From IMG/VR virus record IMGVR_UViG_3300020811_000088, positions 1 through 60,628 of that record: DNA of 60,628 nucleotides; one strand, given 5' to 3'. The stretch comes from a virus. The notes beneath the pieces were generated by a model. It ran no database searches. It worked only from the letters and a program-made list of their open reading frames with translations, and was not told where the DNA came from. Every line of letters begins with the position of its first letter. The stretch's first letter is position 1. Below, one piece after another: positions 7,974-39,958 of the stretch. The position numbers and the translations under genes were made by a program.

Positions 7974-7983
7974 GGTTTTAAAC

Positions 7984-9843
7984 ATGACTACAGCATACAC
8001 ATCACTCTTGGGCTTGGCACTGCCGGTCACAGGGGAACTCAGTGGTACGTGGGGCGATACGGTTAATAACTCCATCACTTCGTTGCTGGACAGCGCCGTT
8101 GCAGGCACGACCACCCTGAGCACTGATTTGGATGTGACGCTGACCACCACGACTGGTGCAGCCAACACGGCGCGTGAGGCAATTCTCTTGTGCTCTGGCG
8201 CTCGCACAGCGCAGCGTACCATTACAGCTCCCGCCCAGTCCAAGATTTACACGATCATTAACGCCACGACTGGTGGCTTTGCGGTCAAGCTGGTCGGCGC
8301 GGGTCCCACCACCGGTATCACAATTGCCGCAGGCGAATCGGCTGTGGTCGCCTGGAACGGCTCGGACTTCATCAAGATCAGCAACACTGCTGGCGCAGGT
8401 GTTTTCAGTTCCATCACCAATACAGGCTTGACATCGGGCCGTGTGGTCTATAGCACCACAGGCGGTTTGGAAACAGACTCTGCCAATCTGACGTTTGACG
8501 GAACAACGCTTACAGCTAACGCTTTAACGGTCACAAACAACGTCACCCTCTCCGGTGGCACAGCCAACGGAGTGACCTACCTGAACGGCTCTAAGGTTGT
8601 TACTACGGGTAGTGCGCTGACGTTTGATGGGAGCAACCTTACAGTTTCTGCCGGGTTTCTGAAATCAGCTAACGCCGCAGGTTCATCGCTTGCTCGGCTT
8701 GTGCAGACTGGCACATCTAATGGCTTGTACATCACCACCGATGCAAGCTACAACACCATTTACAACGCATCTGGTGCAAGCGGCTATGCGCATATTTGGC
8801 AATCCGGTGATGCCGAACAAATGCGCCTGACCAGCACTGGTCTGGGCATCGGGACGAGTTCGCCTGCTTATAAGTTGGATGTTAGCGGAACAACAGCCCG
8901 ACTTGGCGGTGGCGGTTCCTATCCGCTGTACTTGATCGCGGACTCAGGCGGTTTGCAACTTTTCAACGCTTCTGGCGGCGCTACAGGCGATGGCGTGTAT
9001 TTGAATGGCGCATCGCATTATCTTGGGTTCTATACGAATAGTGCAGAAAAGATGCGCCTTGACATCTACGGCAACCTCGGCCTTGGTGTTACGCCGAGTG
9101 CGTGGGCTTCGACATACAAAGCAGTTCAAGTTGCATACGGAAGCCTATGGACGGCAACCAGTGCCCCTACTTTTGTTTCGGTCAGTGCAAACTCATATTA
9201 TTCGGCTGGTGGGTATACGTATTCCACAACCGGAGTTGCATCGGATTATTATCAGAACGCAGGCGCTCACGTTTGGCGCACAGCTGCCTCCGGCACAGCA
9301 GGAACAGCCATTACTTTCACCCAAGCAATGACGCTGGATGCAAGTGGGAATTTGCTGGTTGGGGCTACATCCCAGTTTGGTGGAGCAGATTGCAAACTGC
9401 AAGGCAAAAACGGGTCTAGTGCTCAATCAGTGTCGTTCCTTTGGAATGCCACGACTACTGGAGATGCTGCTTTTGTTGCGTTTGGAACAGAAACATCAAT
9501 TATTCAGCGTGGTTCAATCACATACAACCGCGCGGGTGGTTTGACCGTTTACAACACAACATCGGATTATCGGGCCAAAGACATTTACGGCCCTATTGCT
9601 GACAGTGGCGCATTGATTGACTCTGTGCCTGTTTACATGGGCAAAATGAAGGGTGCTACACAAGAGCGCCCAATGTTCATTGCTCACGAAACACCATCGT
9701 ATGCTCACACTGGCGAGAAAGACGCAGTTGATGCTGATGGCAACCCTGTGTATCAACAGATGGACGCAAGCGCACTTATCCCTGTGATGTGGGCAGAAAT
9801 CCAATCCCTCCGTAAACGCCTTGCAGACGCAGGCATCGCTTAA
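7984..9843 (+). CDS. Tail fibre/tailspike with C-terminal intramolecular chaperone (peptidase S74-type) domain
   Basis: N-terminus YTSLLGLALPVTGELSGTWGDTVNN; C-terminus TSDYRAKDIYGPI...ALIPVMWAEIQSLRKRL matches the S-D-x-R-x-K autoproteolytic chaperone signature. Confidence 0.75.
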   Translation: MTTAYTSLLGLALPVTGELSGTWGDTVNNSITSLLDSAVAGTTTLSTDLDVTLTTTTGAANTAREAILLCSGARTAQRTITAPAQSKIYTIINATTGGFAVKLVGAGPTTGITIAAGESAVVAWNGSDFIKISNTAGAGVFSSITNTGLTSGRVVYSTTGGLETDSANLTFDGTTLTANALTVTNNVTLSGGTANGVTYLNGSKVVTTGSALTFDGSNLTVSAGFLKSANAAGSSLARLVQTGTSNGLYITTDASYNTIYNASGASGYAHIWQSGDAEQMRLTSTGLGIGTSSPAYKLDVSGTTARLGGGGSYPLYLIADSGGLQLFNASGGATGDGVYLNGASHYLGFYTNSAEKMRLDIYGNLGLGVTPSAWASTYKAVQVAYGSLWTATSAPTFVSVSANSYYSAGGYTYSTTGVASDYYQNAGAHVWRTAASGTAGTAITFTQAMTLDASGNLLVGATSQFGGADCKLQGKNGSSAQSVSFLWNATTTGDAAFVAFGTETSIIQRGSITYNRAGGLTVYNTTSDYRAKDIYGPIADSGALIDSVPVYMGKMKGATQERPMFIAHETPSYAHTGEKDAVDADGNPVYQQMDASALIPVMWAEIQSLRKRLADAGIA

Positions 9844-20682: not shown

Positions 20683-23600
20683 ATGGCTGGTCGCGATTTC
20701 AGTGCAGAGCTTTTTGGCTCTGAAGACAAACCTGCACAGGGGCGCGACTTCAGCGCACAGTTATTTGGCAAGCAAGAAGAGCCCGGTTTCTTTGGGCGTC
20801 TTGGTCCTGCAGTGTCGCGGGGTGTCAGTGAGCTTGGCGAAAGCGCGTCGGGCATTGGCCTTGGTTTAAAGTCTGCCTTTGGCGCCAATGAATCGGCCGG
20901 CAAGCAGGCAGAAGAAATTCGCAAAGAGCGAGCAATCCCCAGCAAAGAAGCCCCGGCAATTACATGGGATGAGCTGGAGAAAACATACGGCAAAGAAGGC
21001 GCAATCGAAGCACTGAAGAAGCTGCCGTCATACGTTGCTGAACAAGTCTTGCAAAGCGCTCCGAGCATGGCGGTTCCTTTGGCTGCAAGCGCGGCCGCTG
21101 GCGCCGTCTCTGGCCCGCTTGCCCCCATTGCTGCGCCATTGGCTGGTATTGGCACATACGGCTTACAACAGTTTGGCCAGTTCATGCAACGCCAAGCGCA
21201 AGAAGGCGCTACCGGAGAAACTCTGGCGCCCGGCAAAGCTGCTGCAACGGCTGCTTTGACTGCGCCTATCGGGTACTTTGCCGACAAATTGATGTTGGGC
21301 ATGGGCAAGATCCCAGAAAAAGTTCTGGGTGAGCAGATCGCTAAAGAATTAGCTAAGCGTACTGGCGCCACTATGGCTGGCCGTGTTGCAACCGGTGCGA
21401 CCATTGGCGTGATTGCCGAAGCTCCTACTGAAGTATTGGAACAAGCTGGTGAGCGCTGGCAAGCCGGCCTTCCATTGATGGATGAGGCCGCCAAGAAAGA
21501 ATACAAGGAAGCATTCTTTGGCGCCGCTGCTGTTGGCGGTTTGGGTGGAGGCGCATCTCGTGCCATGGCCAAGCCTCAGGCGGCTGCCCCTGCGCCTACT
21601 GCAGACCAAACTACTGCCGCTCCTGTTGAGCCTACCGAGACTCCAATACAGAAGCAAATCGCAGAAAAAACTGGCATTACTGAAGCTCCGTCTGCTACTC
21701 CATCTATGCTGACTTCCGAAGAAGCGGCGGGCCAACGCATCCCAATGCTGCAGGCCAAGATTGAAGAAGACATGGCAGCTCAAGAAGAGCGCGCTCGTCG
21801 GGAAGGGCCTCGTCCTGTCGTGCCTGAAGTTGCACCAACAGAGACCAGCCGCTTTGACACCGAGCAGCCTGCAGTTACTTCGCGTGAAGATCTGTTGGCA
21901 AAACAAGCAGAGATTGATCGCATGCGTTTGGAGGCCGGCCTGCCCACAGGTGAGTCCTCTGCGACACCCGGCGTTCAGCCTGAAGCAAAAGCTCCAGAAG
22001 AAGTGCTGGCTCCCAAGATTGTGGACAACCGCCCACTGGAAGCAGGGGCTGCAAAGAACCGTTTGATGGTCATGCAGAACATGCTGAAGAACCAAGGCGG
22101 CGACCCAGCCAGCTTGGCCATTGTTCCTCACCCTACGGCCGAAGGGCGTTTTGCCATCCAGTCACTGGATGTGCCAGCTCGCTTTACGCCTGAGATGCAG
22201 GGCAACAAAAATGAGACCGGCCGCGTGCGCGAGACTACAGTCACTCGCATGGATGAGACAGGCAAGCCATTCACCGAGACAACTGAGACGCCTGCCGGTC
22301 CCGGCATTGAGATTGATCCGATCAAAACGTACATCGACATTGCTCGCCGTACCAACACGCCCGCTTCGATGCGCCTTGTCCGCGACTTTGAGTCTGGGCT
22401 GGTTACTCGTGATGATGTGCAGGCAGCCATTGATGCTGAGCAAAAGGCCGGCCGCCCACTGCCATTGAACTACACCGTTGCCGGTGAGCCTTGGTTCTTG
22501 GCGCCTGATATGGGCAAGCCACGCGGTGAGCGAGAGTTACCACCTTCTTCGCGATTGACTCGGGAAATTCCTCAAGGTCCACGTCGCCCCGGAGAGGAAC
22601 CCCCTCCAGAAACTCCGCCGCCAGAAACCCCTCCTCCAGAGGGAGAGCCGCCACAGCCTACTGGAACTACGCCTCAAACATTGGATGAGTTCAAGCAGCG
22701 GTTCCCGATTGATGCGGATCAGCCACAAATTCGTGAGGCCCACAATGCGGGCAACTTCAGATTGTTGGCTGACCAAATGGCGGCCAGTAAGAATCCTGCT
22801 GTCAAGCGCATTGGTGAATTGTCTCGTGCGATTGCAGGCAAGGTGAAGCTGTTGCCTCCGGGTAAACAAAGCCCCGGTGTGCTGGGTCGGTATCGTTATA
22901 TCGACGACTCAATTCAAATGGCGCCCAAAGCTGCGGGCAGTGAGTGGGTCAGCGCGCACGAGTCCGTGCATGCATTGATTGCATTGGCTCAGCGCACTCC
23001 GACCAAGCGGCAAGAGCCTATTGTTGAGGACATCAGCAGGCTGTTTGCGCACGTTAAACGAGAGCTGAACCGTCAAGGCAAGGGCTGGGGCAAGAAGTAT
23101 TCTCAGCAAGTGTATGGTTTGGCCAACGAGCTGGAGTTCACAGCGGAAGCAATGAGCAACCCTGAGTTTCAGTACATGCTCATGCAAATCCCATACTCAG
23201 GCAAGCGTAGCGCATGGACCGAGTTCACGCGCTTGGTGGCCGATCTGCTGGGCATCAAGAACACCAACGCATTGACCGAGGTGATGAACCTGACTGACAA
23301 GCTGGCTCAGACTCCACGTCCAAAGTACGTGTTCAGCCGCAACCTGACATCAGAGACGGCAACAGCGGAAGGCGTAACGCCTCAAGAGCGCGACACCAAC
23401 TTCAAACGCTGGTTTGGAAACAGCAAAATTGTTGATGAGCAAGGCAAACCATTGCGGGTTTACCACGGCACCAAGCGTGACTTCAAAGAGTTCAAGACCA
23501 GCTACGGAGATGGTTTATTTTTCTTTTCCACCAATCCAGAATTTGCCAGTAAATGGCCATCTGGAACTGGCGGGTTACGTCAAATTTCAGAAGACAACGC

Positions 23601-23868
23601 CAAGGAATATGAAAAAATCCGTGCGCTTGAAAAAGAGCTTGGCGCCAAATACATGAACAAAGACTATGACTTTGATTCAGAACAAGGTGTTGCTGAGTAC
23701 GATGCGGATCGCCAAGCAGTCAGAGATGAGTTGAAAAACAAACTGGTTACGCCAACTCTACAGACTATGAAAATAAAGCCGGCATTCGCGTCATGCCTGT
23801 GTACTTGTCAATTCAAAAGCCATTTGACCCGCGCACTGACTACAAAAAATCGAGCCTTTGTTGCGTGA
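20683..23868 (+). CDS. N-terminal part of a polyvalent giant virion protein of about 2,079 aa (HExxH metallopeptidase-like and ART-like domains)
   Basis: AHESVHAL (22957..22971) with ELEFTAEAMSNPEFQYML; FKRWFGNSKIVDEQGKPLRVYHGTKRDFKEF (YHGT at 23461..23472); last ~40 codons are out of frame. Confidence 0.6.
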   Translation: MAGRDFSAELFGSEDKPAQGRDFSAQLFGKQEEPGFFGRLGPAVSRGVSELGESASGIGLGLKSAFGANESAGKQAEEIRKERAIPSKEAPAITWDELEKTYGKEGAIEALKKLPSYVAEQVLQSAPSMAVPLAASAAAGAVSGPLAPIAAPLAGIGTYGLQQFGQFMQRQAQEGATGETLAPGKAAATAALTAPIGYFADKLMLGMGKIPEKVLGEQIAKELAKRTGATMAGRVATGATIGVIAEAPTEVLEQAGERWQAGLPLMDEAAKKEYKEAFFGAAAVGGLGGGASRAMAKPQAAAPAPTADQTTAAPVEPTETPIQKQIAEKTGITEAPSATPSMLTSEEAAGQRIPMLQAKIEEDMAAQEERARREGPRPVVPEVAPTETSRFDTEQPAVTSREDLLAKQAEIDRMRLEAGLPTGESSATPGVQPEAKAPEEVLAPKIVDNRPLEAGAAKNRLMVMQNMLKNQGGDPASLAIVPHPTAEGRFAIQSLDVPARFTPEMQGNKNETGRVRETTVTRMDETGKPFTETTETPAGPGIEIDPIKTYIDIARRTNTPASMRLVRDFESGLVTRDDVQAAIDAEQKAGRPLPLNYTVAGEPWFLAPDMGKPRGERELPPSSRLTREIPQGPRRPGEEPPPETPPPETPPPEGEPPQPTGTTPQTLDEFKQRFPIDADQPQIREAHNAGNFRLLADQMAASKNPAVKRIGELSRAIAGKVKLLPPGKQSPGVLGRYRYIDDSIQMAPKAAGSEWVSAHESVHALIALAQRTPTKRQEPIVEDISRLFAHVKRELNRQGKGWGKKYSQQVYGLANELEFTAEAMSNPEFQYMLMQIPYSGKRSAWTEFTRLVADLLGIKNTNALTEVMNLTDKLAQTPRPKYVFSRNLTSETATAEGVTPQERDTNFKRWFGNSKIVDEQGKPLRVYHGTKRDFKEFKTSYGDGLFFFSTNPEFASKWPSGTGGLRQISEDNAKEYEKIRALEKELGAKYMNKDYDFDSEQGVAEYDADRQAVRDELKNKLVTPTLQTMKIKPAFASCLCTCQFKSHLTRALTTKNRAFVA

Positions 23869-26800
23869 ACAAGGCAAGCAAAACTTGATTGATGGCGATT
23901 ATCATAAGTCTGGCAATTGGTTGGTGTATGAAAACAAAGATGTCATTGCCGAGCTGAAGCGGCTGGGATATGACGGCATTTGGCTGGCTGAAAATATCGG
24001 CGGCCCACACGAAACCATTGCTCCTTTTTCCAACACGCAAATTAAATCTGCAACCGGAAACCGTGGCACATATAGCCCTGACGTCCCTGACGTTGAAGAG
24101 TTGTCCATGCCATCGTTTGGCAAGAAGCCAACGCCTCCTACGCCCACCAACATTGGCAAGCAAGCCATGGACATCGTGGGTGAAACAGGCATGGCCGCAG
24201 CGCCGCCTCCATTGACTCGTGCGCAAGTGGCACAACAAGTCATCGCCAAAGTCAAAGAAGACCCAGCCCTTACCGCTCAGACGGCCAAGGCCGCACTGAC
24301 TCGGGCGCTGGATAAGTTTGAGACGTCTATGTTCTCGGGTGATGCAGCGTTCAACAATGAGATCCGCCGCAACCTCATGAAAGACTTTCAGGACAATCCT
24401 GAAGTTATGGGCATGCTGTTGGAAGCCAGCCAATCACAGACCGTTCACTCGGATGCTTTGGCCACGCAGTTCATTGTGGATGGCGGCATTGCCTTCGACA
24501 AAGAAACCAACAAGTGGGTGTCGGTCAAGAAGGAAGATAACTTCATCAAGTTGGCCAAAGGCATTGAGGATTTGCAGGCAAAGTACAACCTGAGCAAAGA
24601 AGACGCTGAACGCATCGCGCATACGTACTTCGTGGCCAAGCGGTTCAAATCGCTGGAGCAAAAGCAAACAATGCGCGACGCTGAAATTTCTCAGCTTGAG
24701 GACCGCATCAAGAAGGAGCAGAACAACTCCAAGCTGACGCCTTCTCAGCGCGAGTCGATCGTCAAAGGCTTGCGCTCTGACATTAAAAAGCTGGAAGCGG
24801 CCGAGGTCTACATCTCTGACGAGCAGCGCGCCATGATTAAGCCCGGCATGAGCTTGGGCTCATTGATGCCTGAGCTGGAGAAGATCAGCGACACATGGCA
24901 GGGCATCCGCACCAACGCGGTCAAAGCCATGGTGGATGGCGGCCTGTGGAACATGGAGACGGCCGAAGCAATGCTCAACAACATCGACTACGTTCCCTTC
25001 TACCGCGAAGATCAACTTGCCGAAGGCCAAGGCCCGCAGGAGTTCATTAAGGGCTTGGAGGTCAAGGCCAAAGAGTACAAGCTCAAGGGCTCCAACTCTG
25101 CCGTCAACGATGTGTTTGACAACATGGTGCGCTGGACACAGTACGCCATCAACCGCTCCGTGCGTAACCACAAGGCGATGCAAATGGTTGACCTTGCCAC
25201 CGAGATCAATGTCGGCGACGAGAAGATGGCCAAGAAGGTTGAAGAGATGGACAAGGACAAGAACATTGTTCGCGTCTTCCGTGATGGCGTGCAAGAGTTG
25301 TACGAAGTGGCCGACCCGTTGTACATGGATGCGTTCACCGCCATCAGCAACGTTGCCATGCCCAACATCAAGTTCTTCTCGTTCATGGCTGACTTGTTGC
25401 GCAAGACTGTGGTGTTGAACCCATTGTTCTCGTTGGCTCAGGTTCCGTCTGACGCCTACTCTGCGATGTTCACGTCCGGCTTGAAAGCGCCTTACGCCCT
25501 GAGCATTCCCGTGCGCGCCGTCAAAGAGTTCGTGATGACAATGAACAAGACAAGCGCCACTCACAACTTGTTGAGGCAGTACGGCGCCACTGGTGTGCGT
25601 GACTTCAATGCAACGATTGCTCGCCAAGACGTTGAGATTGCTGCCGGCCTGAAGGCGCCAAAGGATCTGAAGGGCAAGGTCATGGAAGGCTTGAGCCACA
25701 TCGCCATGGCTGCTGATAACGCAGTGCGTCAGGCTGTGTACGAAGCCTCTATGGCTCAAGGCTTGTCCAAGTCCGAGGCAATCGAGAAGGCGTTTGAGAT
25801 CATCAACTTCCGTCGTCGCGGCACGAACAAGACTGTCAACGTGCTTGGCCAGACTGTGCCGTTCTTCTACGCCTACATGAGCGTACAGCGTGTGGCCATG
25901 AAGACCTTGAGTGGCACAGGCATCTCTCCGCAAGCACGTGGCGAGGCGCTGAAAACACTGGCTTACACATCGACCGCAGTGATGGCCTTGTCCATGCTGT
26001 ACTCAATGGCCAACGGTGGTGATGACGAGTACGAGAAGACGCCTGTCGCTGTGCGTGACCGCACTCTGCATGTGCCCGGCACCGTTCTTCGCATTCCTTT
26101 GCGCCCTGATTTCTTCTTGTTCCCAAAGATTGTGGCTGAGCATTTGTATCACCTGATTACCGACAAGGGTTTGTCTGATGGCGCAAAGTTCCGCAAGTCA
26201 ATGGGCGAGAACTTGGCCAACTCAGTGCTCAGTCCTCAGCCAATTCCACAAGCGATCAAGCCTCTTGTCGAAGTCACAATCAATCACGACTTCTTCCAAG
26301 GCCGTCCAATCATTGGGCCGTTCGAGCAGAAGAAGGAAGCAGAGCGCCAGTTCAACGACAACACTTCGGAGTTGTCCAAAACTATTGGCGGCGGACTTGG
26401 CATTTCACCAATCATGATGGATCACGTTATCCGTGGGATGTTTGGATCTTTAGGTGGCCTGACGATGTACGCCTCCAACTTCATGCTGCACAGCGATCCA
26501 AACGTGGAGCGCCCAAGCTTGTCGTTCCGTGATGCCATGGCTGGCTTGCCGGGCACCAGTGGATTCGTTACGCGCGCCAACGAGTCTCGTTTGAAGAATG
26601 ACTTCTACGAGCTGCGTGACGTGGTCGAGAAGGCAAACGCTACCTTCAAGGACATTGAGAAGCGCAGCCCTGAAGGCGTTGCAGACTTCCTCAAAGACGA
26701 GAAGAACATGATGCGTTTGGGCTTGGTGAAAGACGTGGACAGCATTACTCGTGAACTGTCCAGCATTCGCAATACCATCGCGCAGATCAGCAATGCACCC

Positions 26801-26917
26801 AAGGGCGTCTTCACAGGCAACCAAAAGGAAGATGCAATCAAAGATTTGCGCAAAATGGAAGGCGACATGATGAAGTCGATTCCGATCTCAGAGATGCGCA
26901 AACTTGCAAAAATGTAA
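23858..26917 (+). CDS. C-terminal part of the same giant virion protein
   Basis: Continues the split domain: ...LGYDGIWLAENIGGPHETIAPFSNTQIKSATGNRGTY. Joined to 20683.. through frame 0 (23730..23850) by two 1-nt corrections. Confidence 0.6.
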   Translation: MLREQGKQNLIDGDYHKSGNWLVYENKDVIAELKRLGYDGIWLAENIGGPHETIAPFSNTQIKSATGNRGTYSPDVPDVEELSMPSFGKKPTPPTPTNIGKQAMDIVGETGMAAAPPPLTRAQVAQQVIAKVKEDPALTAQTAKAALTRALDKFETSMFSGDAAFNNEIRRNLMKDFQDNPEVMGMLLEASQSQTVHSDALATQFIVDGGIAFDKETNKWVSVKKEDNFIKLAKGIEDLQAKYNLSKEDAERIAHTYFVAKRFKSLEQKQTMRDAEISQLEDRIKKEQNNSKLTPSQRESIVKGLRSDIKKLEAAEVYISDEQRAMIKPGMSLGSLMPELEKISDTWQGIRTNAVKAMVDGGLWNMETAEAMLNNIDYVPFYREDQLAEGQGPQEFIKGLEVKAKEYKLKGSNSAVNDVFDNMVRWTQYAINRSVRNHKAMQMVDLATEINVGDEKMAKKVEEMDKDKNIVRVFRDGVQELYEVADPLYMDAFTAISNVAMPNIKFFSFMADLLRKTVVLNPLFSLAQVPSDAYSAMFTSGLKAPYALSIPVRAVKEFVMTMNKTSATHNLLRQYGATGVRDFNATIARQDVEIAAGLKAPKDLKGKVMEGLSHIAMAADNAVRQAVYEASMAQGLSKSEAIEKAFEIINFRRRGTNKTVNVLGQTVPFFYAYMSVQRVAMKTLSGTGISPQARGEALKTLAYTSTAVMALSMLYSMANGGDDEYEKTPVAVRDRTLHVPGTVLRIPLRPDFFLFPKIVAEHLYHLITDKGLSDGAKFRKSMGENLANSVLSPQPIPQAIKPLVEVTINHDFFQGRPIIGPFEQKKEAERQFNDNTSELSKTIGGGLGISPIMMDHVIRGMFGSLGGLTMYASNFMLHSDPNVERPSLSFRDAMAGLPGTSGFVTRANESRLKNDFYELRDVVEKANATFKDIEKRSPEGVADFLKDEKNMMRLGLVKDVDSITRELSSIRNTIAQISNAPKGVFTGNQKEDAIKDLRKMEGDMMKSIPISEMRKLAKM

Positions 26918-32578: not shown

Positions 32579-33769
32579 TTAATTGCCTTTGATGCAAAGG
32601 ACTTGTTTGAGGGTGTGCATCACTTCTACGAGATCTGTTTGGTTGGCCATCACTTGGTCGATGTCTTTGTAGGACGCTGGGATTTCGTCGATGACGCCTT
32701 CGTCTTTGCGGCACTCTACGCCTTCGGTTTGGGCGATAAGGTCGGTGAGAGTAAAACGACGTTTAGCTTCGGCACGCGACATAACACGTCCAGCTCCATG
32801 GGAGCACGAACAGTAGGATTGAAGGTCACCTTTTCCCCGAACAATGTAACTGCGTTGACCCATACTTCCTGGGATGATTCCGAGGTCACCTTCACGCGCA
32901 CGGATCGCACCCTTTCGAGTAACCCACATGTTTCGTCCAAAGTGATGTTCTTTTTCAACATAGTTGTGGTGGCAGTTGATTGCTTCCTGTGTGATGGTGA
33001 ACTCGATTGGCACTTCTTTGCGCATGGCCTCGATGACTTGGATCATCATGCGGCGGCGGTTCTCAAGCGCATAGTTCTGCGCCCAGCCCACTGCTGCCAT
33101 GTAGTCGTCGAAGTCTTCGGCGTCCTCTGGAAAGTACGCGAGGTTGTCGTCAGGCAGCGTGATGAAGAACTGCTCCATCTGGCGCTTGGCCTTGGCGATG
33201 TAGTGCGTCCCAATCATGTTGCCGATACCGCGTGAGCCCGAGTGCAGCATGATCCATACGTCCTGGTTCTCGTCAATGCAGATCTCAATGAAGTGATTGC
33301 CAGACCCGAGCGATCCCATCTGGCTTGCGGCCTTCGCATGAAACTTGTCGTAGTCGCCGTTGTACAGCGGGTGAATAACTGTCTTGTACAGCAAGCCGTT
33401 CACCTCACCAATGTCGGTGCTGTCATCATGCGCGCCACCAACACCCAGGGGCACGCGCTTCTCGATCTCGTCGCGCAGAGGCTTTAGGTTGTCTGGCAGG
33501 TCGGACGCCTTGAGTGACAGGCGCACAGCGTTCATGCCGCAGCCAATGTCCACCCCTACCGCGGCAGGGATGACGGCCTTCTCGGTGGCAATGACGGTGC
33601 CCACGGTCGATCCGATGCCAGCGTGTACATCAGGCATGCAGGCCACGCCATTGCTGTTGATGAAAGGTAGGCGTGAAAGGTTCTTTAGCTGGGTCAGTGC
33701 GGATGCTTCCACTTCGTCTGTCCAGATCTTGATTGGACGTGCACCCTCTTCTTGGATGACTTGTTTCAT
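32579..33769 (-). CDS. rtcB: RtcB 3'-phosphate/5'-hydroxyl RNA ligase
   Basis: MPDVHAGIGSTVG, DIGCGMNA, GSGNHFIEI, HSGSRGIGN, CHHNY, TRKGAIRA, IPGSMG, SCSHGAGR; 396 aa. Confidence 0.9.
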   Translation of the reverse strand: MKQVIQEEGARPIKIWTDEVEASALTQLKNLSRLPFINSNGVACMPDVHAGIGSTVGTVIATEKAVIPAAVGVDIGCGMNAVRLSLKASDLPDNLKPLRDEIEKRVPLGVGGAHDDSTDIGEVNGLLYKTVIHPLYNGDYDKFHAKAASQMGSLGSGNHFIEICIDENQDVWIMLHSGSRGIGNMIGTHYIAKAKRQMEQFFITLPDDNLAYFPEDAEDFDDYMAAVGWAQNYALENRRRMMIQVIEAMRKEVPIEFTITQEAINCHHNYVEKEHHFGRNMWVTRKGAIRAREGDLGIIPGSMGQRSYIVRGKGDLQSYCSCSHGAGRVMSRAEAKRRFTLTDLIAQTEGVECRKDEGVIDEIPASYKDIDQVMANQTDLVEVMHTLKQVLCIKGN

Positions 33770-34229: not shown

Positions 34230-34395
34230 CACCAAGACGCATGGGGATTGGTGGCATGGTCGTACAGAGCCAAAAACGATTTAATGCGAATCGTGCCAGT
34301 CCTCAGCCGTGTTGGTGGTGTTACGGGTTAGCGCCGTAGCAGAATTCTGAATGAAAAGAACACTGCTTTATGTGGGCCACCAACAGCCTGTTAAG

Positions 34396-34424
34396 TTTAC
34401 AACCCTGATTTTTGGGTTTACAAT
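34396..34424 (+). promoter_or_regulatory. Sigma70-type promoter for the tRNA genes
   Basis: TTTACA (34396..34401), 17-nt spacer, TACAAT (34419..34424); shares the downstream TCCGC with the promoter at 34787. Confidence 0.55.
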
Positions 34425-34469
34425 CCGCGCATCATGAAATCCCAAGCCCTTAACCCCCGACCGACTAAG

Positions 34470-34545
34470 CAGTGTGTAGCTCAGTTGGTAGAGCGCGTGC
34501 TTTGGGAGCATGAGGTCGCAGGTTCGATCCCTGTCACACTGACCA
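34470..34545 (+). tRNA. tRNA-Pro (anticodon TGG), CCA encoded
   Basis: Cloverleaf built by hand: acceptor CAGTGTG/CACACTG, D arm GCTC-AGTTGGTA-GAGC, anticodon arm CGTGC-TTTGGGA-GCATG, T arm GCAGG-TTCGATC-CCTGT, A73, CCA. Confidence 0.85.
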
Positions 34546-34664
34546 ATTCCCGATATTGATCCCCTCGCACAAGGGGGCAGTATTTTGCTAAGGACGCAAA
34601 GCGGTCTGTAAAACCGATGCCGATGCGCTGGCCAGGATCGTTACCTGGATGTCCCACCAAACAT

Positions 34665-34740
34665 TCCCTGATAGCTCAGTCGGTAGAGCGCCGGACTGTT
34701 AATCCGTAGGTCCCTGGTTCGAGCCCAGGTCGGGGAGCCA
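34665..34740 (+). tRNA. tRNA-Asn (anticodon GTT), CCA encoded
   Basis: Acceptor TCCCTGA/TCGGGGA (one G-U pair), D arm GCTC-AGTCGGTA-GAGC, anticodon loop CTGTTAA, T arm CCTGG-TTCGAGC-CCAGG, G73, CCA. Confidence 0.85.
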
Positions 34741-34741
34741 A

Positions 34742-34762
34742 AAGCGACATCATGTCGTTTTT
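34742..34762 (+). terminator. Weak hairpin plus T5 after tRNA-Asn
   Basis: AAGCGACA-tca-TGTCGTTT followed by a T run. Confidence 0.4.
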
Positions 34763-34786
34763 CAAATTGATACGTGTTGAAATGTG

Positions 34787-34817
34787 TTGACACGACCCGG
34801 AAATTTGTGGTTATAAT
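34787..34817 (+). promoter_or_regulatory. Near-consensus sigma70 promoter firing into the non-coding locus
   Basis: TTGACA (34787..34792), 19-nt spacer (long), TATAAT (34812..34817); preceded by GTGTTGA direct repeats 10 bp apart (34774, 34784). Confidence 0.5.
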
Positions 34818-34823
34818 CCGCCC

Positions 34824-34944
34824 AGCTAGGTGTGAGAGCCAATGCGAATGAGCCGTTAAGCCTGATCCCGACCCCGTATGGGGTAGTCAAAGTCACAAAC
34901 TTTGATTCTCTCACCGGGGTCAGACTTAACGGCTTTTTTGTTTT
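34824..34944 (+). ncRNA. Candidate ~120-nt structured RNA (three-way junction closed by a 19-bp stem, with intrinsic terminator)
   Basis: 34852..34870 pairs with 34915..33 (one G-U pair, one C-A mismatch). Inner hairpins ACCCC-gtat-GGGGT (34871..84) and CAAAGT-cacaa-ACTTTG (34888..904). Followed by TTTTTTGTTTT. Confidence 0.45.
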
Positions 34945-34945
34945 C

Positions 34946-35084
34946 AAAATACTTGATGATGGTGCGGCGTGGAAGGACACGCAAACCCCAAAAGTCTTGC
35001 CCGAATGTGCCTACGGGTCGAATCACGGACGGAACCGTGGCCGGACAGCCGGAATCAATCCCGGTCACCATCATCAAGTATTTT
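34946..35084 (+). ncRNA. Candidate ~140-nt structured RNA (or MITE-like element) closed by a perfect 19-bp stem
   Basis: 34946..34964 (AAAATACTTGATGATGGTG) is the exact reverse complement of 35066..35084. The interior has GCGTG-gaagga-CACGC (34967..82), GCCCG...CGGGT and CACGG-acggaa-CCGTG hairpins. Confidence 0.45.
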
Positions 35085-35372
35085 TCTCTCACCATCCCAG
35101 CCGTTCTCCTCACGTTAGCACTGGGCCTGCATGGGCCGCGAGGAAGAAAACACCGGCCCTGGTACACCCCCAGATTAAAAGCCGTCCAGCCTGTCAGCGA
35201 GGGACTGGGGAAGATAGAGCGGCAAGCGGTGAAGACAAACGCCCTATCGACGAATCGCTGCCTTATGGGTTTGCTAGGAGAGCACTGTGTGTGCCCTCTG
35301 GGCAGGGAGTGAACAGCCGTGGCTATCACCCTTGGGGGCCGCTGCGCCAAAAATTTTTGCTGAAACGGAAAT
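35085..35372 (+). ncRNA. Remaining ~290 nt of the non-coding locus (structured, function unknown)
   Basis: No SD-led ORF; hairpins include GGGCCG-15 nt-CGGCCC (35133..59) and TGCCC-tct-GGGCA (35292..304). Confidence 0.3.
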
Positions 35373-35404
35373 AAAAAACCCGCCTCAGTGGACGGGTCTG
35401 TTTT
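35373..35404. terminator. Bidirectional terminator (A-tract / hairpin / T-tract) between the non-coding locus and the GIY-YIG gene
   Basis: AAAAAACCCGCC-tcagtg-GACGGGT-ctgTTTT. Confidence 0.7.
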
Positions 35405-35744
35405 AAGAATTAACCGCAAGCTTCAATATCTTTTCTAGGTTTAGCGGTGCGCAGTTGTTCTTCTCGTGCCCGTTAAGGGGTGGATTAAACATGTGGATGT
35501 AAAGCGATTCCAGTACGTCGAGGTGCTCCTTTGGGCATGGCAGTACGGTAAAGCTGTCAAAGTTCTTGTGTGTGTGGGAGCTTATTCTGGAGTAGATGTT
35601 TACTGATTGCCCGACGTAAATAATTTTGTTGTTTGATATGAGGAAGTAAACGCCAGTAAATTTTTGCCACGGCTTAGCGGCGTTTAAGATTGACTCTTCT
35701 GAAACGAGCGACTTGCTGGTTATTTTGTTCGACAACTCACTCAT
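35403..35744 (-). CDS. GIY-YIG nuclease domain protein (homing-endonuclease-like), AT-rich
   Basis: GVYFLISNNKIIYVGQSVNIYSRISSH matches GIY-(10)-YIG...R..H. Confidence 0.6.
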   Translation of the reverse strand: MSELSNKITSKSLVSEESILNAAKPWQKFTGVYFLISNNKIIYVGQSVNIYSRISSHTHKNFDSFTVLPCPKEHLDVLESLYIHMFNPPLNGHEKNNCAPLNLEKILKLAVNS

Positions 35745-35766: not shown

Positions 35767-35928
35767 TTAAGCTTTTTTCCAGCGCTTCAATCTGGTTTTT
35801 AGCAAGTAATGGCGCTCGTATGCGTCTCGAATGGCCGCCTCGTGTGCTGCTTTGTTTGCTTTGCGTGTGGCAACGCTTTTTGCCGAGCGCCTTGCTTGCT
35901 CTTCTGGTGATGGCTTAACGTAAATCAT
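35767..35928 (-). CDS. 53-aa ORF; probably the N-terminal extension of the GIY-YIG protein
   Basis: GAGGA RBS; MIYVKPSPEEQARRSAKSVATRKANKAAHEAAIRDAYERHYLL... Adding 1 nt in each of T5 (35796..800) and T6 (35773..778) reads through ...LKNQIEALEKKLKAVQEIESMSELSNK. Confidence 0.4.
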   Translation of the reverse strand: MIYVKPSPEEQARRSAKSVATRKANKAAHEAAIRDAYERHYLLKTRLKRWKKA

Positions 35929-36928: not shown

Positions 36929-37128
36929 TCTTGTTCCTTGTTAAGTGCCGCCCATTCTTCGTCTGTGATTAGTGGGATGGGGCTGGTATATACACCTTCG
37001 TACAAACCAAGCCGTACATTTTCATCATGCAGCCTTTGCAGCGCCCGTTGCCTTGCATATGTCACAGCCATCATCCGGGCCTTGGCTTCGCGCTCGATGC
37101 GGTTGAACTCGTCGTCTTCGGTGTTCAT
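36925..37128 (-). CDS. Hypothetical small protein (starts MNTEDDEF)
   Basis: Translationally coupled ORF. Confidence 0.5.
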   Translation of the reverse strand: MNTEDDEFNRIEREAKARMMAVTYARQRALQRLHDENVRLGLYEGVYTSPIPLITDEEWAALNKEQE

Positions 37129-37790: not shown

Positions 37791-37992
37791 GGTTTCTCCT
37801 TATTAAAGCCACCAAAATGTGCGCCAACATTTGCAAGCGCCATTTGCTTAACAAACTCTTGCTCCAGTTCGGTCAGCTCGTTAAAGCCTTCGATCTTTTT
37901 GCAGGTGTCTTCCATTGTTTTTTCATTGATTCGTTCAACGCTTTGGCATATCGAGCACCCAAAGCAGCGTAAGCCTCGTCTTCGGTGTTCAT
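37787..37992 (-). CDS. Hypothetical small protein, split by a 1-nt deficit in T6 run 37908..37913 (+ strand)
   Basis: ATG 37992 overlaps the upstream TGA. MNTEDEAYAALGARYAKALNESMKK then shifts frame to TMEDTCKKIEGFNELTELEQEFVKQMALANVGAHFGGFNKEKP. Confidence 0.5.
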
Positions 37993-38234
37993 GCTTGCCC
38001 CCTTGCGCGGATGGCGTCAGCAAACATCTTTCCGTAAAACGGCTCGGTTTCAAGGCACAACTTTGCACACGCCTCGCGCTCATCCAGTTCGGCCAACCAA
38101 ACCAGCCAATATAGAAAGTCCATGTTGTCTACGATCGTTTTTTCGTGTTGCTCAAAACTGCCCAATCTTCCGTCTTCGGCGCACAGCCGAATGGCTCTGC
38201 TTGCCAGACTTCTTACTTTATTTTCTGCGCTCAT
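37989..38234 (-). CDS. Hypothetical small protein ending ...EREACAKLC...AIRARGQA
   Basis: Coupled ORF; C-terminal module shared with 38506..38751. Confidence 0.55.
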   Translation of the reverse strand: MSAENKVRSLASRAIRLCAEDGRLGSFEQHEKTIVDNMDFLYWLVWLAELDEREACAKLCLETEPFYGKMFADAIRARGQA

Positions 38235-38939: not shown

Positions 38940-39103
38940 GTGTTCTCCTTTAGTGGTTGCATTGCCGCTTGCAAGTGTTCGTCTTGGTGCTTCTTTGCCT
39001 CTTTCATTTCGGCAAGCAGGGCTTCAAGTTCTGCAATTGAGTACATACCTTCGGGTACATGAAACCGCGCCGTGTCATATGTTCTGTATGTGTATTCACT
39101 CAT
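38936..39103 (-). CDS. 55-aa ORF (below the track cutoff) ending ...LKENT
   Basis: Hand translation: MSEYTYRTYDTARFHVPEGMYSIAELEALLAEMKEAKKHQDEHLQAAMQPLKENT*; ATGA overlaps at both ends. Confidence 0.5.
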   Translation of the reverse strand: MSEYTYRTYDTARFHVPEGMYSIAELEALLAEMKEAKKHQDEHLQAAMQPLKENT

Positions 39104-39513
39104 GTGTTCTTCTCCTTGAGTTTGGCTTCTGCTATACGCACAGCATCCATTGGCAATTCCAACGCAATTTCTTGTATCTCCTCATCAGTCAGCCCAACCC
39201 AAGCGGCTGGCTGGGGGCGGGTTATGCTGTCCTGCCCAGAAATGTACGCAACCCGCAATGCTTGCGAGAAGCCAATTTCTTCTGGGTCGCCATGTTGGTT
39301 TGCAAGCCACTGCTCAAACGCCACCGGCTCATCGGCTGGCACATCTGAGCAGTTGTCGCCGATAACTTTTGCGGTTGCCTTCAGCTCCTCCAGCCGATCC
39401 ATCGCGTGCGCCCAGTCCACGGCGAACAGCTTGAAATCAAAGGTTCCCTCTTGGGTCTGAAACTCCACAAGAAACTCTTGCCACTCAACCCCATCAACAA
39501 TTACTTTTGACAT
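39100..39513 (-). CDS. Member of the PQPAAWVGLT...KEKNT paralog family
   Basis: GGAGGG RBS before MSKVIVDGVEW; C-terminus RPQPAAWVGLTDEEIQEI...AEAKLKEKNT. Confidence 0.6.
   Translation of the reverse strand: MSKVIVDGVEWQEFLVEFQTQEGTFDFKLFAVDWAHAMDRLEELKATAKVIGDNCSDVPADEPVAFEQWLANQHGDPEEIGFSQALRVAYISGQDSITRPQPAAWVGLTDEEIQEIALELPMDAVRIAEAKLKEKNT
39187..39222. repeat. 36-bp repeat (agtcagcccaacccaagcggctggctgggggcgggt), copy 1
   Basis: Identical to 39623..39658; 33/36 identical to 40706..40740. Confidence 0.85.
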
Positions 39514-39514
39514 C

Positions 39515-39958
39515 TCAATTCCCTCCGTTCTTCTCGCGCAGCTTGGCTTCGATGGCGTAAGCGAACTCGTTAAAACCACCGCCCTCTTGCGTGTCATCAA
39601 AAGCGATGTCGATGTCTTGCTGAGTCAGCCCAACCCAAGCGGCTGGCTGGGGGCGGGTGTAGAGGGGAAGTGTCTGCACATTAGCTTCGCTACCAAAACC
39701 ACGTTCAAGCTCGCACTCGATTTCATCCGCAACATCGGCTCGGACAACGATCTTTTGAACTGCGCCAAAGGCTTTCACCATGTACGCCACAGGCTCCCCG
39801 GCTGGCTGCTGCTCAAGGGCTTGGCGTAGGGCGGCGATGGCTTCTTTCGTGCCTTCAAGCCAATGCCATTGACCTTCAATGATATGAGCATCATCCACAA
39901 ATCTTTCATAGGATTCCAACGCCTCCAGCGCCAGCTTCAATGCTTCGTCTTTAGTCAT
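39515..39958 (-). CDS. Member of the PQPAAWVGLT paralog family
   Basis: ...RPQPAAWVGLTQQDIDIAFDD...AIEAKLREKNGGN. Confidence 0.6.
   Translation of the reverse strand: MTKDEALKLALEALESYERFVDDAHIIEGQWHWLEGTKEAIAALRQALEQQPAGEPVAYMVKAFGAVQKIVVRADVADEIECELERGFGSEANVQTLPLYTRPQPAAWVGLTQQDIDIAFDDTQEGGGFNEFAYAIEAKLREKNGGN
39623..39658. repeat. 36-bp repeat, copy 2
   Basis: Exact match to 39187..39222. Confidence 0.85.

Follow-up and report, generated by a model that had tools for sequence, protein, structure and literature searches.

What is the 139-nt element that begins and ends with two complementary arms, at positions 34946 to 35084 of a viral DNA stretch of 60,628 nt (hereafter the window, the whole stretch analysed), a structured RNA or a mobile piece of DNA? 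A sequence-only reading of this locus had offered both possibilities, the closing helix of a multi-helix RNA, as in the Y RNAs, and the terminal repeats of a miniature transposable element (MITE). The inverted repeat itself is real and far above chance. A repeat search confirmed the arms at 34946-34964 (AAAATACTTGATGATGGTG) and 35066-35084 as 19 nt long and 100% complementary with 101 nt between them, as had been claimed, and the arm sequence occurs at only two sites in the 60.6-kb window with up to three mismatches allowed (two matches were obtained in 0 of 100 shuffles). By our own arithmetic, about 4e-5 perfect 19-bp inverted repeats within 200 nt are expected by chance in 60.6 kb. Folding of the 139 nt gives z = -4.7 for both strands. 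The T-run described as following the element exists, but it consists largely of the four terminal bases of the 3' arm, to which a single T is added, and it pairs with the AAAA at the start of the 5' arm.

The comparisons below identify the element as a member of a widespread family of tRNA-shaped phage RNA modules that appears to be undescribed; in this phage it is placed inside a larger structured RNA (hereafter the host RNA). The locus has the following features.

34470..34545, + strand: tRNA-Pro(UGG), upstream of the module (ARAGORN; Rfam tRNA 67.6 bits).
34665..34740, + strand: tRNA-Asn(GUU), upstream of the module (ARAGORN; Rfam tRNA 66.4 bits).
34787..34817, + strand: promoter-like site seen by eye, with TTGACA at 34787-34792, a 19-nt spacer and TATAAT at 34812-34817.
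34824..34945, + strand: 5' domain of the host RNA, containing an inverted repeat; homologues in L024, L025 and MW202545.
34851-34870 with 34915-34934, + strand: long stem of the 5' domain, enclosing two small hairpins.
34829-34838 (GGTGTGAGAG) with 34908-34915 (CTCTCACC), + strand: pseudoknot of the 5' domain.
34935-34945, + strand: U-run closing the 5' domain.
34946..34964, + strand: 5' strand of the closing stem (stalk), 19 nt, from the inverted-repeat search.
34965..34982, + strand: linker CG and D-arm-like hairpin (GCGTG 34967-34971, loop GAAGGA 34972-34977, CACGC 34978-34982).
34983..35046, + strand: variable domain of 64 nt, holding the GCCCG/CGGGT and CACGG/CCGTG hairpins.
35047..35065, + strand: conserved A (35047) and T-arm-like hairpin (GCCGG 35048-35052, loop AATCAATC 35053-35060, CCGGT 35061-65).
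35066..35084, + strand: 3' strand of the closing stem, 19 nt, with zero spacer after the T-like stem.
35085..35338, + strand: 3' domain of the host RNA, starting with TCTCTCACC (35085-35093) and ending with CACCCTTGGGG.
35187-35208, + strand: conserved 22-mer CAGCCTGTCAGCGAGGGACTGG in the 3' domain.
35376..35399, no single strand: GC-rich hairpin between an A-run and a T-run (- strand from the terminator scan, + strand T-run by eye).

Read as RNA, the module runs from the closing stem through a CG linker, the hairpin GCGUG-GAAGGA-CACGC, a 64-nt non-conserved domain and an invariant A to the hairpin GCCGG-AAUCAAUC-CCGGU, which abuts the closing stem. The first hairpin (34967-34982) had been recognized in the sequence-only reading and proved to be the most conserved part of the family. 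The hairpins GCCCG...CGGGT and CACGG-acggaa-CCGTG, reported together with it, are present but fall within the variable domain and are not conserved, while the second conserved hairpin (GCCGG-AATCAATC-CCGGT, 35048-35065) had been overlooked. A search with a structural descriptor yielded 202 modules from contigs of phages, prophages and bacteria: 167 came from viral loci, and the other 35 from three cultured phages together with 32 bacterial genomes. Shuffled sequence totalling 2.9 Mb yielded none. Hereafter, all-family statistics refer to 193 distinct modules, and counts out of 167 refer to the viral set. The family is defined by a closing stem of 6 bp or more (19 bp in the element), whose 5' strand runs straight into the linker and whose 3' strand follows the T-like stem without a gap, by a linker C-R with a 5-bp hairpin and the loop GAWGGA, present here in the commonest family form, and by an A followed by a 5-bp hairpin with the 8-nt loop U/A-R-U-C-R-A-N-Y, also present in the element. 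Its loop AATCAATC is unique among the 202 modules and consistent with the consensus.

Covariation, proposed earlier as a check on the RNA reading, is found in all three helices of the module. An exact scan with an 18-mer containing the first hairpin matched at least 120 viral loci, and in about 100 of the 123 first-hairpin matches (these loci, the window and L026) the preceding strand complements the bases directly 3' of the second conserved hairpin. When the scan was anchored on the second hairpin, the first stem was found to covary (GCGUG/CACGC, GCGCU/AGCGC, GCACG/CGUGC, GUGUG/CACAC and others); the T-like stem covaries as well. Alignment A1 shows double-sided changes in 16 of 17 pairs and a covariation score of 0.556, compared with 0.127 after shuffling. 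Since the sequences in A1 were picked by the pairing descriptor, the figure of 99.9% paired is circular, and the independent evidence of covariation is confined to the pair-type diversity and the anchor-only scans.

Several regularities were not imposed by the search: the conserved A precedes the T-like stem in 191 of 193 modules, the innermost closing pair of this stem is G-C in 187 of 193, and of the 167 viral modules 155 have the linker CG and 11 have CA. The D-like loop reads GAWGGA in 157 of 167, the remainder deviating by a C or G as third base or by one inserted nucleotide, and the T-like loop of the family has the consensus U-A-U-C-R-A-G-Y. The closing stems, by contrast, range from 6 to 21 bp and differ in sequence at nearly every locus. 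The variable domain including the conserved A spans 43-208 nt (median 83) in the 167 viral modules and 41-208 nt in all 193, and its folds are diverse, with no common sequence or fold across the family. Whole modules of the short L196/L088 type measure 93-98 nt. The covariance model R1 scores 71.5 bits on the window (E 1.6e-11), whose sequence is itself in the seed, and 54.8, 46.8 and 44.6 bits on L475, L458 and L026, non-seed relatives with a module at the same site. The family extends over Proteobacteria, Cyanobacteria, Planctomycetes and candidate-phyla bacteria with nearly invariant core hairpins. Cultured carriers, in which the module is unannotated, include the Caulobacter phage DMCA (host C. 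vibrioides CB15); Iodobacter phage PhiPLPE, Acidovorax phage AP1 and Pseudanabaena phage Pan3 are further cultured phages with the module.

The arrangement of the module corresponds to the plan of a tRNA (RF00005). The helix order is the same, with a 2-nt linker; the closing stem stands for the acceptor stem and the variable domain for the anticodon arm, and the D-like loop keeps GG. The sequence of the 8-nt T-like loop corresponds to the T-loop consensus, G53|U-(A)-U-C-R-A-N-Y|C61, once a single additional base is allowed for, and the T-like hairpin sits directly on the closing stem, on which it is predicted to stack. The module also adjoins real tRNA genes on the same strand. On the other hand, it has a non-conserved domain of 41-208 nt in place of the anticodon arm, a 6-nt D-like loop and a closing stem of 6-21 bp, and it departs from tRNA in having C for U8, a 5-bp D-like stem and an 8-nt T-like loop. 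CCA is encoded after the stem in only 6 of 193 modules and is absent in the element. Neither ARAGORN nor the Rfam tRNA model (E <= 10) scored the element, and ARAGORN calls only the two neighbouring tRNA genes. The resemblance to tRNA is architectural only.

In tRNA, G18 and G19 contact psi55 and C56 to form the elbow. The GG of the first module loop would probably meet the UC of the second in the same way, giving a tRNA-like elbow. In a variant at the same site, seen in L439 and L470, both loops are replaced by the complementary sequences GCUGA and UCAGC, and this kissing-loop variant argues that the two loops touch.

The module occupies the linker that joins the 5' domain to the 3' domain in a structured RNA of about 440 nt, downstream of tRNA-Pro and tRNA-Asn. 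The 22-mer CAGCCTGTCAGCGAGGGACTGG of the host RNA occurs in at least 56 related phage contigs (IMG/VR loci), and RNAalifold on 26 sequences predicts 30 pairs, 20 of them with compensatory changes. The 5' domain is variable and the 3' domain conserved among the relatives; the stem and the pseudoknot of the 5' domain both covary in L430, L433, L435, L437, L442, L450 and L463. The start of the 3' domain (TCTCTCACC, 35085-35093) is a second complement of 34829-34838. Most relatives are empty at the module site, and alignment with the empty sites shows a clean insertion of 139 nt with collinear flanks; compared with these relatives, the element has been added as a discrete unit that is optional. 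The stalks of the window, L458, L439, L026 and L475 differ through compensatory changes. Relatives also carry other, unrelated hairpin-closed inserts at the same site. The host RNA is a second apparently undescribed RNA, whose linker takes interchangeable hairpin-closed modules. The view that the 19-bp repeat closes a structured RNA of several helices is thus supported by the compensatory changes among relatives and by two conserved, covarying hairpins in the interior. We consider it very probable that the element is a member of a conserved, covarying RNA family and an optional arm of a larger RNA.

From the sequence, we infer that the host RNA is transcribed from its own promoter downstream of both tRNAs, the site at 34787..34817 being the candidate promoter of the large RNA. 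Its -35 region is 92.6% identical in L421-L424, in which the part of the window that holds both tRNAs (34380-34767) is represented by only about 47 nt, and promoter-like hexamers stand at the equivalent upstream position in L026, L425 and L421. A consensus promoter scan did not list this site, because of the 19-nt spacer. The hairpin at 35376..35399, which is terminator-like on both strands and has equivalents in L026, L425 and L421, is likely to end both the RNA unit and the convergent GIY-YIG gene. Immediately upstream of the module stands a terminator-like hairpin with a U-run, which could limit expression of the module.

The + strand reading of the module is favoured because the module lies on the tRNA strand in all 20 cases with a tRNA within 2 kb and because the closing G.U pair of the T-like stem (35048-35065) is compatible with the + strand only. 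We infer + strand transcription of the module, and likewise its RNA ends and its processing. The element appears non-coding, since the two overlapping ORFs of about 180 aa have no Pfam match and the presence/absence difference of 139 nt is no multiple of three.

The family loci lie mostly in unrelated contexts, and the location of the module varies widely between phages. All-against-all clustering of 3,266 flanking ORFs gave no consistent protein neighbour or partner and no recurrent neighbouring gene family that is transposase-like; the largest cluster is the large terminase, about 1.2 kb downstream in 11 family loci. Many of the flanking candidate ORFs look spurious, being of low complexity and rich in Arg and Pro. 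The DMCA copy lies beside an annotated transposase, the only one noticed, and also adjoins an integrase, which prompted a search for integrases; a link of the module to an integrase or attP was rejected, as an iterated profile search placed an integrase within 3 kb in only 2 of 198 loci. A gene for RtcB (Pfam 3e-127) is located 1.2 kb upstream of the element on the opposite strand. Of 80 phage RtcB loci searched with the model in 6-kb flanks, one (L026) carries the module, and only the window and L026 among the host-RNA loci have RtcB. Both in the window and in relatives, genes for GIY-YIG and HNH endonucleases lie next to the locus. The syntenic relatives were reached through homologues of the GIY-YIG product, for which an exact-sequence look-up returned no record.

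No Rfam 15 family matched the module or the host RNA at gathering score over the whole window, and none matched in 18 family loci, 17 host-RNA loci and three canonical stand-alone members; the only near-match at the locus with E <= 10 was EGFOA (35164-35247), at 15.6 bits against a cut-off of 37.7. In window 34300-35500 and in L433 10200-10900 the GOLLD and ROOL models had no match at E <= 10, and 17 host-RNA relatives gave none at gathering score. When the region was compared by BLAST with 50,697 phage records, the match was confined to 78 nt of the hairpin domain upstream of the module, and a related Enterobacterales family member (not the window sequence) had no match in 5,426 E. coli genomes. 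No description of the module was found in full-text literature searches that included literal motif strings, and a catalogue of 10,006 candidate viral RNAs may list it anonymously (PMC10690425).

Two of the alternatives place the function in the DNA. If the element were a MITE-like insertion, its 19-bp repeats would be transposase-binding termini and its RNA structure incidental. It shares with MITEs its small size, a perfect terminal inverted repeat and a presence/absence polymorphism at a fixed site, and comparison with collinear relatives shows an insertion that is exact and optional; the word TTTTC stands at both edges, and near-identical core hairpins in very different phages and bacterial phyla suggest horizontal spread. 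However, the window holds a single copy, and the BLASTn check for dispersed copies suggested earlier gave no near-identical one in the 50,697 phage records or in about 480 fetched loci, nor did the E. coli genomes match the Enterobacterales member. In MITEs the termini are the conserved part, whereas here no sequence is common to the termini, which measure 6-21 bp, and it is the internal hairpins that show conservation and covariation. The two TTTTC words overlap the 3' arm within a T-rich linker, the inserts of L458, L439 and L026 show no duplication, and we agree with the earlier observation that a clear target-site duplication is lacking. With an integrase-like gene within 3 kb in only 2 of 198 loci, no recurrent transposase-like neighbour, and unrelated hairpin-closed inserts at the same site that fit a variable RNA arm better than a transposon target, the MITE explanation is highly improbable. 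To the same degree, we doubt a DNA-level signal, such as an origin cruciform or hairpin, a packaging or recombination site or a homing-endonuclease target. The 19-bp stem is fully Watson-Crick and folds equally on both strands, GIY-YIG and HNH genes are close by, and the terminase follows at about 1.2 kb in 11 family loci; but the family has G.U pairs, for example six in the first pair of the T-like stem and several within closing stems, and in a DNA hairpin or on the opposite strand these would become C.A mismatches; the model matches on one strand only, which is that of the adjacent tRNA in 20 of 20 cases, and the conserved loops fit the T-loop consensus. The widely variable location and the absence of a constant protein neighbour also argue against such a site.

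The other two alternatives accept an RNA but assign it a different role. An attenuator or terminator, in which the big hairpin and its U-run would stop or modulate read-through into the 3' domain, is very unlikely. While UUUUU follows the stem and a terminator-like stem with a U-run precedes it, four of these five U residues are paired in the stem with the 5' AAAA, the structured interior of 101 nt has the wrong shape, and the terminator scan did not list the element. The segment 34829-34838 can pair with either of two CUCUCACC copies flanking the module, suggesting alternative folds, but most relatives lack the module and keep both complementary segments, so that the putative switch is independent of the module, and most family members lie in unrelated contexts. 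The least probable reading is that of a YrlA-like Y RNA whose paired ends bind Ro60/Rsr and which works with RtcB in RNA repair. YrlA RNAs are noncoding tRNA mimics that also occur in phages (PMC4201824), and the module shares with them the conserved D-like and T-like hairpins and the paired 5' and 3' ends; the RtcB gene upstream, on the other strand, is also in line with this reading. The YrlA order (stem, V, T, acceptor-like stem-loop, D, stem; PMC4201824) is, however, circularly permuted relative to the module, in which D comes before T and the internal acceptor hairpin is absent. YrlA carries the Ro-binding motif GNCGAAN0-1G near its 5' end and has a Ro60/TROVE gene within about 4 kb on the same strand (PMC4201824), whereas the motif is absent from 34946-34982, and its nearest match, GTCGAATC at 35018, lies in the variable domain and misses the final G. 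No TROVE/Ro60 domain was detected in the 39 window ORFs scanned, a set that covers the larger ORFs, with all those of at least 150 aa around the locus. The module occurs in only 1 of 80 phage RtcB loci within 6 kb, and RtcB among the host-RNA loci is limited to the window and L026. The Y-RNA analogy of the sequence-only reading is therefore not supported by helix order, Ro-binding motif or Ro60/TROVE gene, nor is its MITE alternative supported, given the single copy in the window and termini that vary while the internal hairpins are conserved.

We favour, as a probable explanation of the whole, a tRNA-shaped RNA module that forms an optional arm of a large phage RNA and whose elbow would give its variable domain tRNA-type processing, stability or docking. 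How it might work is a more tentative matter, and we put forward the following mechanism as a possibility with low confidence. The elbow and the stem platform may be read by machinery that recognizes the tRNA shape, for instance RNase P, tRNA-modifying enzymes, the CCA-adding enzyme or another universally conserved tRNA-binding surface, and such recognition would provide the module with tRNA-type processing, stability or docking. The variable domain would then be the payload, the part whose function differs between phages. The long stalk, consisting entirely of Watson-Crick pairs, would be a natural RNase III substrate, through which the module could be excised from the host RNA. Closing stems of 6-21 bp are a poor fit to the fixed 7-bp acceptor stem measured by RNase P.

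A broader and more speculative reading, which we regard as rather unlikely, is that of a horizontally spreading, self-contained tRNA-shaped handle that plugs diverse payload RNAs into a universally conserved part of the tRNA-handling machinery of the host. The near invariance of the hairpins across phyla would then reflect a shared host target; candidates are the ribosome, an elongation factor, RNase P and a modification enzyme. As to the payload, it might stand alone, follow tRNAs or a tmRNA, or be grafted on a large, ornate RNA, and a long perfect stalk would mark a module that is cut from its host RNA after transcription.

Noncoding-RNA mimicry of tRNA is known from a handful of cases, namely tmRNA, Y RNAs, mascRNA and the 3' ends of plant viruses. 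A widespread phage module family, with core hairpins near-invariant across bacterial phyla and a middle that is free to vary, would add a new class of tRNA mimic and would offer a handle on the role of the phage structured RNAs beside tRNA islands and on their host machine. Since the cultured carriers have tractable hosts (DMCA on C. vibrioides CB15), the question is directly testable.

GOLLD and ROOL are large structured RNAs of phages and prophages beside tRNA islands, and in GOLLD the 5' region varies, the 3' region is conserved, and the linker that joins them holds a tRNA in some cases (10.1101/2024.12.08.627333). The host RNA has the same variable 5' and conserved 3' parts with a tRNA-like module in the linker, and its acceptance of interchangeable modules parallels the tRNAs in the GOLLD linker. 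It differs in size (about 440 nt without the insert, compared with roughly 580 to over 800 nt for GOLLD and ROOL), and its embedded unit is a tRNA mimic, whereas that of GOLLD is a tRNA. At the 3' end of MALAT1, recognition of mascRNA by RNase P leads both to maturation of the RNA that carries it and to release of a stable small RNA (PMC8457004). Like mascRNA, the module is embedded in a long noncoding RNA, and mascRNA offers a working model for the way in which the module could be processed; mascRNA, however, is eukaryotic, forms a near-complete cloverleaf and has been shown experimentally to be processed. With tmRNA, the module shares an acceptor-type stem and a T arm that frame a large non-tRNA insert, but the element has no tag reading frame, encoded CCA or G3.U70 pair, and ARAGORN made no tmRNA call in the window. 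At one family locus (L177), the module directly follows a permuted phage tmRNA gene.

The 139-nt element (34946-35084, + strand) sits in an ORF-poor stretch of a roughly 60-kb tailed-phage genome, which encodes SU10-type adaptor proteins, large polyvalent proteins, terminase, an HNH endonuclease, and a capsid protein. The surrounding features are as follows.

32579-33769, - strand: RtcB ligase gene, full-length (Pfam 3e-127), upstream of the element
34470-34545: tRNA-Pro, upstream of the element
34665-34740: tRNA-Asn, upstream of the element
34787-34817: promoter-like site TTGACA/TATAAT
35376-35399, both strands: terminator-like hairpin, downstream of the element
35403-35744, - strand: GIY-YIG gene, convergent on the element from the downstream side

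The perfect inverted repeat described in the sequence-only reading was reproduced, with 19-nt arms (34946-34964 and 35066-35084) that are 100% complementary and separated by 101 nt. The arm sequence has no further occurrence in the window with up to 3 mismatches allowed, and none of 100 shuffles contained two matches. Compared with shuffled sequences, the 139 nt folds with z of about -4.7 on either strand, and 34820-35400 as a whole with z = -4.55. Searches of the window and locus with Rfam 15, at the gathering score and at E ≤ 10, recognized the two tRNAs alone. Hairpin 1, GCGTG-GAAGGA-CACGC (34967-34982), is present as first described; the two other hairpins reported with it exist but are not conserved in the family, and the important hairpin 2, GCCGG-AATCAATC-CCGGT (35048-35065), had been missed.

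In the related phage locus L026, a helix of another sequence occupies the same place and is followed by an identical hairpin 1. IMG/VR was therefore scanned for the 18-mer CGGCGTGGANGGACACGC, which was found in at least 120 loci. In about 100 of 123 matches (the listed loci, the window, and L026), a strand of 6-20 nt lies directly before the 18-mer, and its complement occurs 60-200 nt downstream, directly after the conserved hairpin 2 (AGCCGGTATCAAGCCCGGC). In the reciprocal scan with hairpin 2, the hairpin-1 stem varies by compensated substitutions and the loop GAWGGA is fixed among the matches listed. A structural descriptor made only of three helices and loose loop patterns matched 167 modules in viral loci and one in the window, and had no match in 2.9 Mb of shuffled sequence. 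In an alignment of 87 sequences, both-sided changes occur in 16 of 17 pairs, and the covariation score is 0.556, versus 0.127 after shuffling and about 0.05 when the partners are slid. Selection of these sequences required pairing, so their paired percentage is circular; covariation is supported independently by the anchor-only scans and by the diversity of pair types. Several near-invariant features lie outside the search criteria: the A before hairpin 2 (191/193), the G-C pair closing the end stem (187/193), and the CG linker (155/167). The module has a conserved secondary structure and a defined strand.

The module follows the order of a tRNA, namely end stem, two linker bases, hairpin 1, central domain, hairpin 2, and end stem, with zero bases between hairpin 2 and the end stem. 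The hairpin-2 loop U-A-U-C-R-A-G-Y, enclosed by an invariant G-C pair, corresponds to the T-loop consensus plus one extra base, and the GG of the D loop is likewise kept in the hairpin-1 loop. The central domain, including the conserved A, spans 41-208 nt (64 nt plus A in the window), and its comparison across the family revealed no shared sequence or fold. Unlike tRNA, the module has no anticodon arm or encoded CCA, its position 8 is C, its hairpin-1 stem is 5 bp, and its end stem ranges from 6 to 21 bp. The tRNA finders give no call on the element. Where a tRNA gene lies within 2 kb of the module, it is on the same strand (20/20). In one locus (L242), a complete tRNA (anticodon CCA) is nested inside the variable domain of the module, and in another (L177), the module (3765-3902) follows a phage permuted tmRNA gene (3432-3751, tag ANDEVYDNRLAA) at a distance of 14 nt.

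These data bear out the structured RNA proposed from sequence alone, and neither a Y RNA nor a MITE-like insertion was supported. In YrlA Y RNAs, the T arm precedes the D arm, a GNCGAAN0-1G motif is present, and a Ro60 gene is located nearby (PMC4201824); none of these traits applies to the element. A scan of 39 window ORFs revealed no TROVE domain. Among 181 confirmed relatives of the window RtcB in IMG/VR, 80 were kept (63-92% identity), and R1, the covariance model of the module family, matched in just 1 of these 80 phage loci; only the closest few (L008, L025, and L026) have any flanking sequence in common with the window. A MITE is expected to show many near-identical copies with conserved termini. 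Instead, the element is present in one copy with no close copy anywhere searched, and the termini differ in nearly every member around a conserved interior. E. coli genomes searched with a related Enterobacterales member also gave no match.

Syntenic relatives, reached via homologs of the GIY-YIG protein, explain the 19-bp repeat. In L425, the same promoter-like site and 5' hairpin domain ending in a U-run are directly followed by the homolog of window 35085-35400, and the module is absent. A 22-mer at 35187-35208 has matches in 56 IMG/VR loci. The RNA hosting the module (34824-35338, + strand, minus 34946-35084) is a predicted structured noncoding RNA of about 440 nt whose 5' domain is variable and whose 3' domain is conserved, and it occurs in at least 56 IMG/VR contigs. 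Its 3' domain contains CAGCCTGTCAGCGAGGGACTGG, GAATCGCTGCC, and CACCCTTGGGG, and RNAalifold predicted 30 pairs there, 20 of which show compensatory changes. This host RNA has no match in Rfam and is a second large phage RNA that is apparently undescribed. When present at the host RNA, tRNA genes are located just upstream on the same strand.

The distance from the U-run to the 22-mer is 98-123 nt in the 23 loci with a locatable U-run, and 256 nt in the window, equal to the typical length of about 117 nt plus 139 nt. In a local alignment, the insertion is cleanly delimited by GGCTTTTTTGTTTTC on one side and TCTCTCACC on the other. Members of the module family occupy the same site in L026, L475, and L458 (R1 44.6-54.8 bits), a variant whose D-like and T-like loops are mutually complementary over 5 nt (GCUGA and UCAGC) is found there in L439/L470, and other relatives carry unrelated hairpin-closed inserts at this site (34945/35085). 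The linker is a hot spot of interchangeable inserts, each with its own long closing stem, and at least four unrelated interiors occur among them (L448, L464/L479/L431, L447/L467, L459, L439/L470). Homologous stalks, diverged from one another by compensated substitutions, are present in the window, L458, L439, and L026: they read ...ACTTGATGATGGTG in the window and L458 (with two G.U pairs in L458), ...TCTTGAAGATGGTG in L439, and ...GTTTAAAGATGATG in L026, and the 3' strands match. The 19-bp repeat thus serves as the stalk of a side-arm that is optional and is located in the linker of this larger RNA. Since only 2 of 202 family members lie inside the host RNA, the module is an independent unit grafted here.

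Within the host RNA, GGTGTGAGAG (34829-34838) is complementary to two downstream copies of CTCTCACC. The first (34908-34915) is inside the terminator-like 5' hairpin, where pairing would form a pseudoknot, and the second (35086-35093) is just past the U-run and module. In relatives, both partners change along with this 5' segment (GTGGAAC/GTTCCAC/TTCCAC and so on), a pattern suggestive of alternative pairings or a switch.

The element belongs to a widespread, apparently undescribed family of tRNA-like modules. Canonical members match no Rfam family even at E ≤ 10, and a literature search that included the motif itself found no description. The module is present, unannotated, in cultured phages of Caulobacter, Pseudanabaena, Acidovorax, and Iodobacter; Komagataeibacter and Alcaligenes phages show a partial BLAST match, also unannotated, to one of the two conserved hairpins. 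By chance alone, 596 Gb of bacterial genomes should contain the bare 18-mer about 70 times. The full structure is found in 32 of the 120 bacterial matches listed. Its carriers include Acetobacter, Janthinobacterium, Bordetella, Pantoea, Comamonas, and Chromobacterium, as well as assemblies labelled Acidobacteria, Planctomycetes, Verrucomicrobia, Elusimicrobia, and candidate-phylum Peribacteria.

We consider that the conserved loops of hairpins 1 and 2 would form a tRNA-like elbow, as supported by the kissing-loop variant of L439/L470. This platform would be read by tRNA-handling machinery, providing processing, stability, or docking for the variable domain, and the long stalk, entirely Watson-Crick, would be a suitable RNase III substrate. 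The nearest models for such a mechanism are mascRNA in MALAT1 (PMC8457004) and the tRNAs in the GOLLD linker (10.1101/2024.12.08.627333). No protein partner emerged from the neighborhood analysis.

In a long-stem subfamily (L117, L162, L165, L175, L258, L259, L313, L318, L319, L391, and others), a small hairpin precedes a 15-18-bp stalk with CCATCA...TGATGG at its distal end, and GGTGA[AG] follows the stalk in about half of the listed members (L117, L162, L175, L177, L259, and L318 among them). The word CCATCATCAAG is common to the stalks of the window and the Bordetella locus L318 but lies on opposite helix strands. In L112, an abiF RNA motif (Rfam RF03085, 41.1 bits; 7856-7891, - strand) is located 13 nt downstream of the module (7904-8001, - strand).

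Elsewhere in the window, 34380-34767, which holds both tRNAs, corresponds to only about 47 nt in the syntenic relatives L421-L424, so the tRNA pair is either an insertion or was lost in those relatives. The GIY-YIG ORF encodes 113 aa, versus about 175 aa in most homologs, and a 53-aa ORF (35767-35928, - strand) is located immediately upstream in the same orientation; a stop or frameshift may split the gene, or there may be a sequencing error. Two very large polyvalent-protein ORFs (1061 and 1019 aa) with ART-PolyVal and LPD38 domains occupy 20683-26917 (+ strand). Words of 30-45 nt at 37083-37119, 37989-38023, 39100-39129, and 39915-39958 recur in diverged related phage loci (L001-L007, L015, and L022) at 86-100% identity, sometimes several per locus, and may be shared intergenic regulatory repeats.
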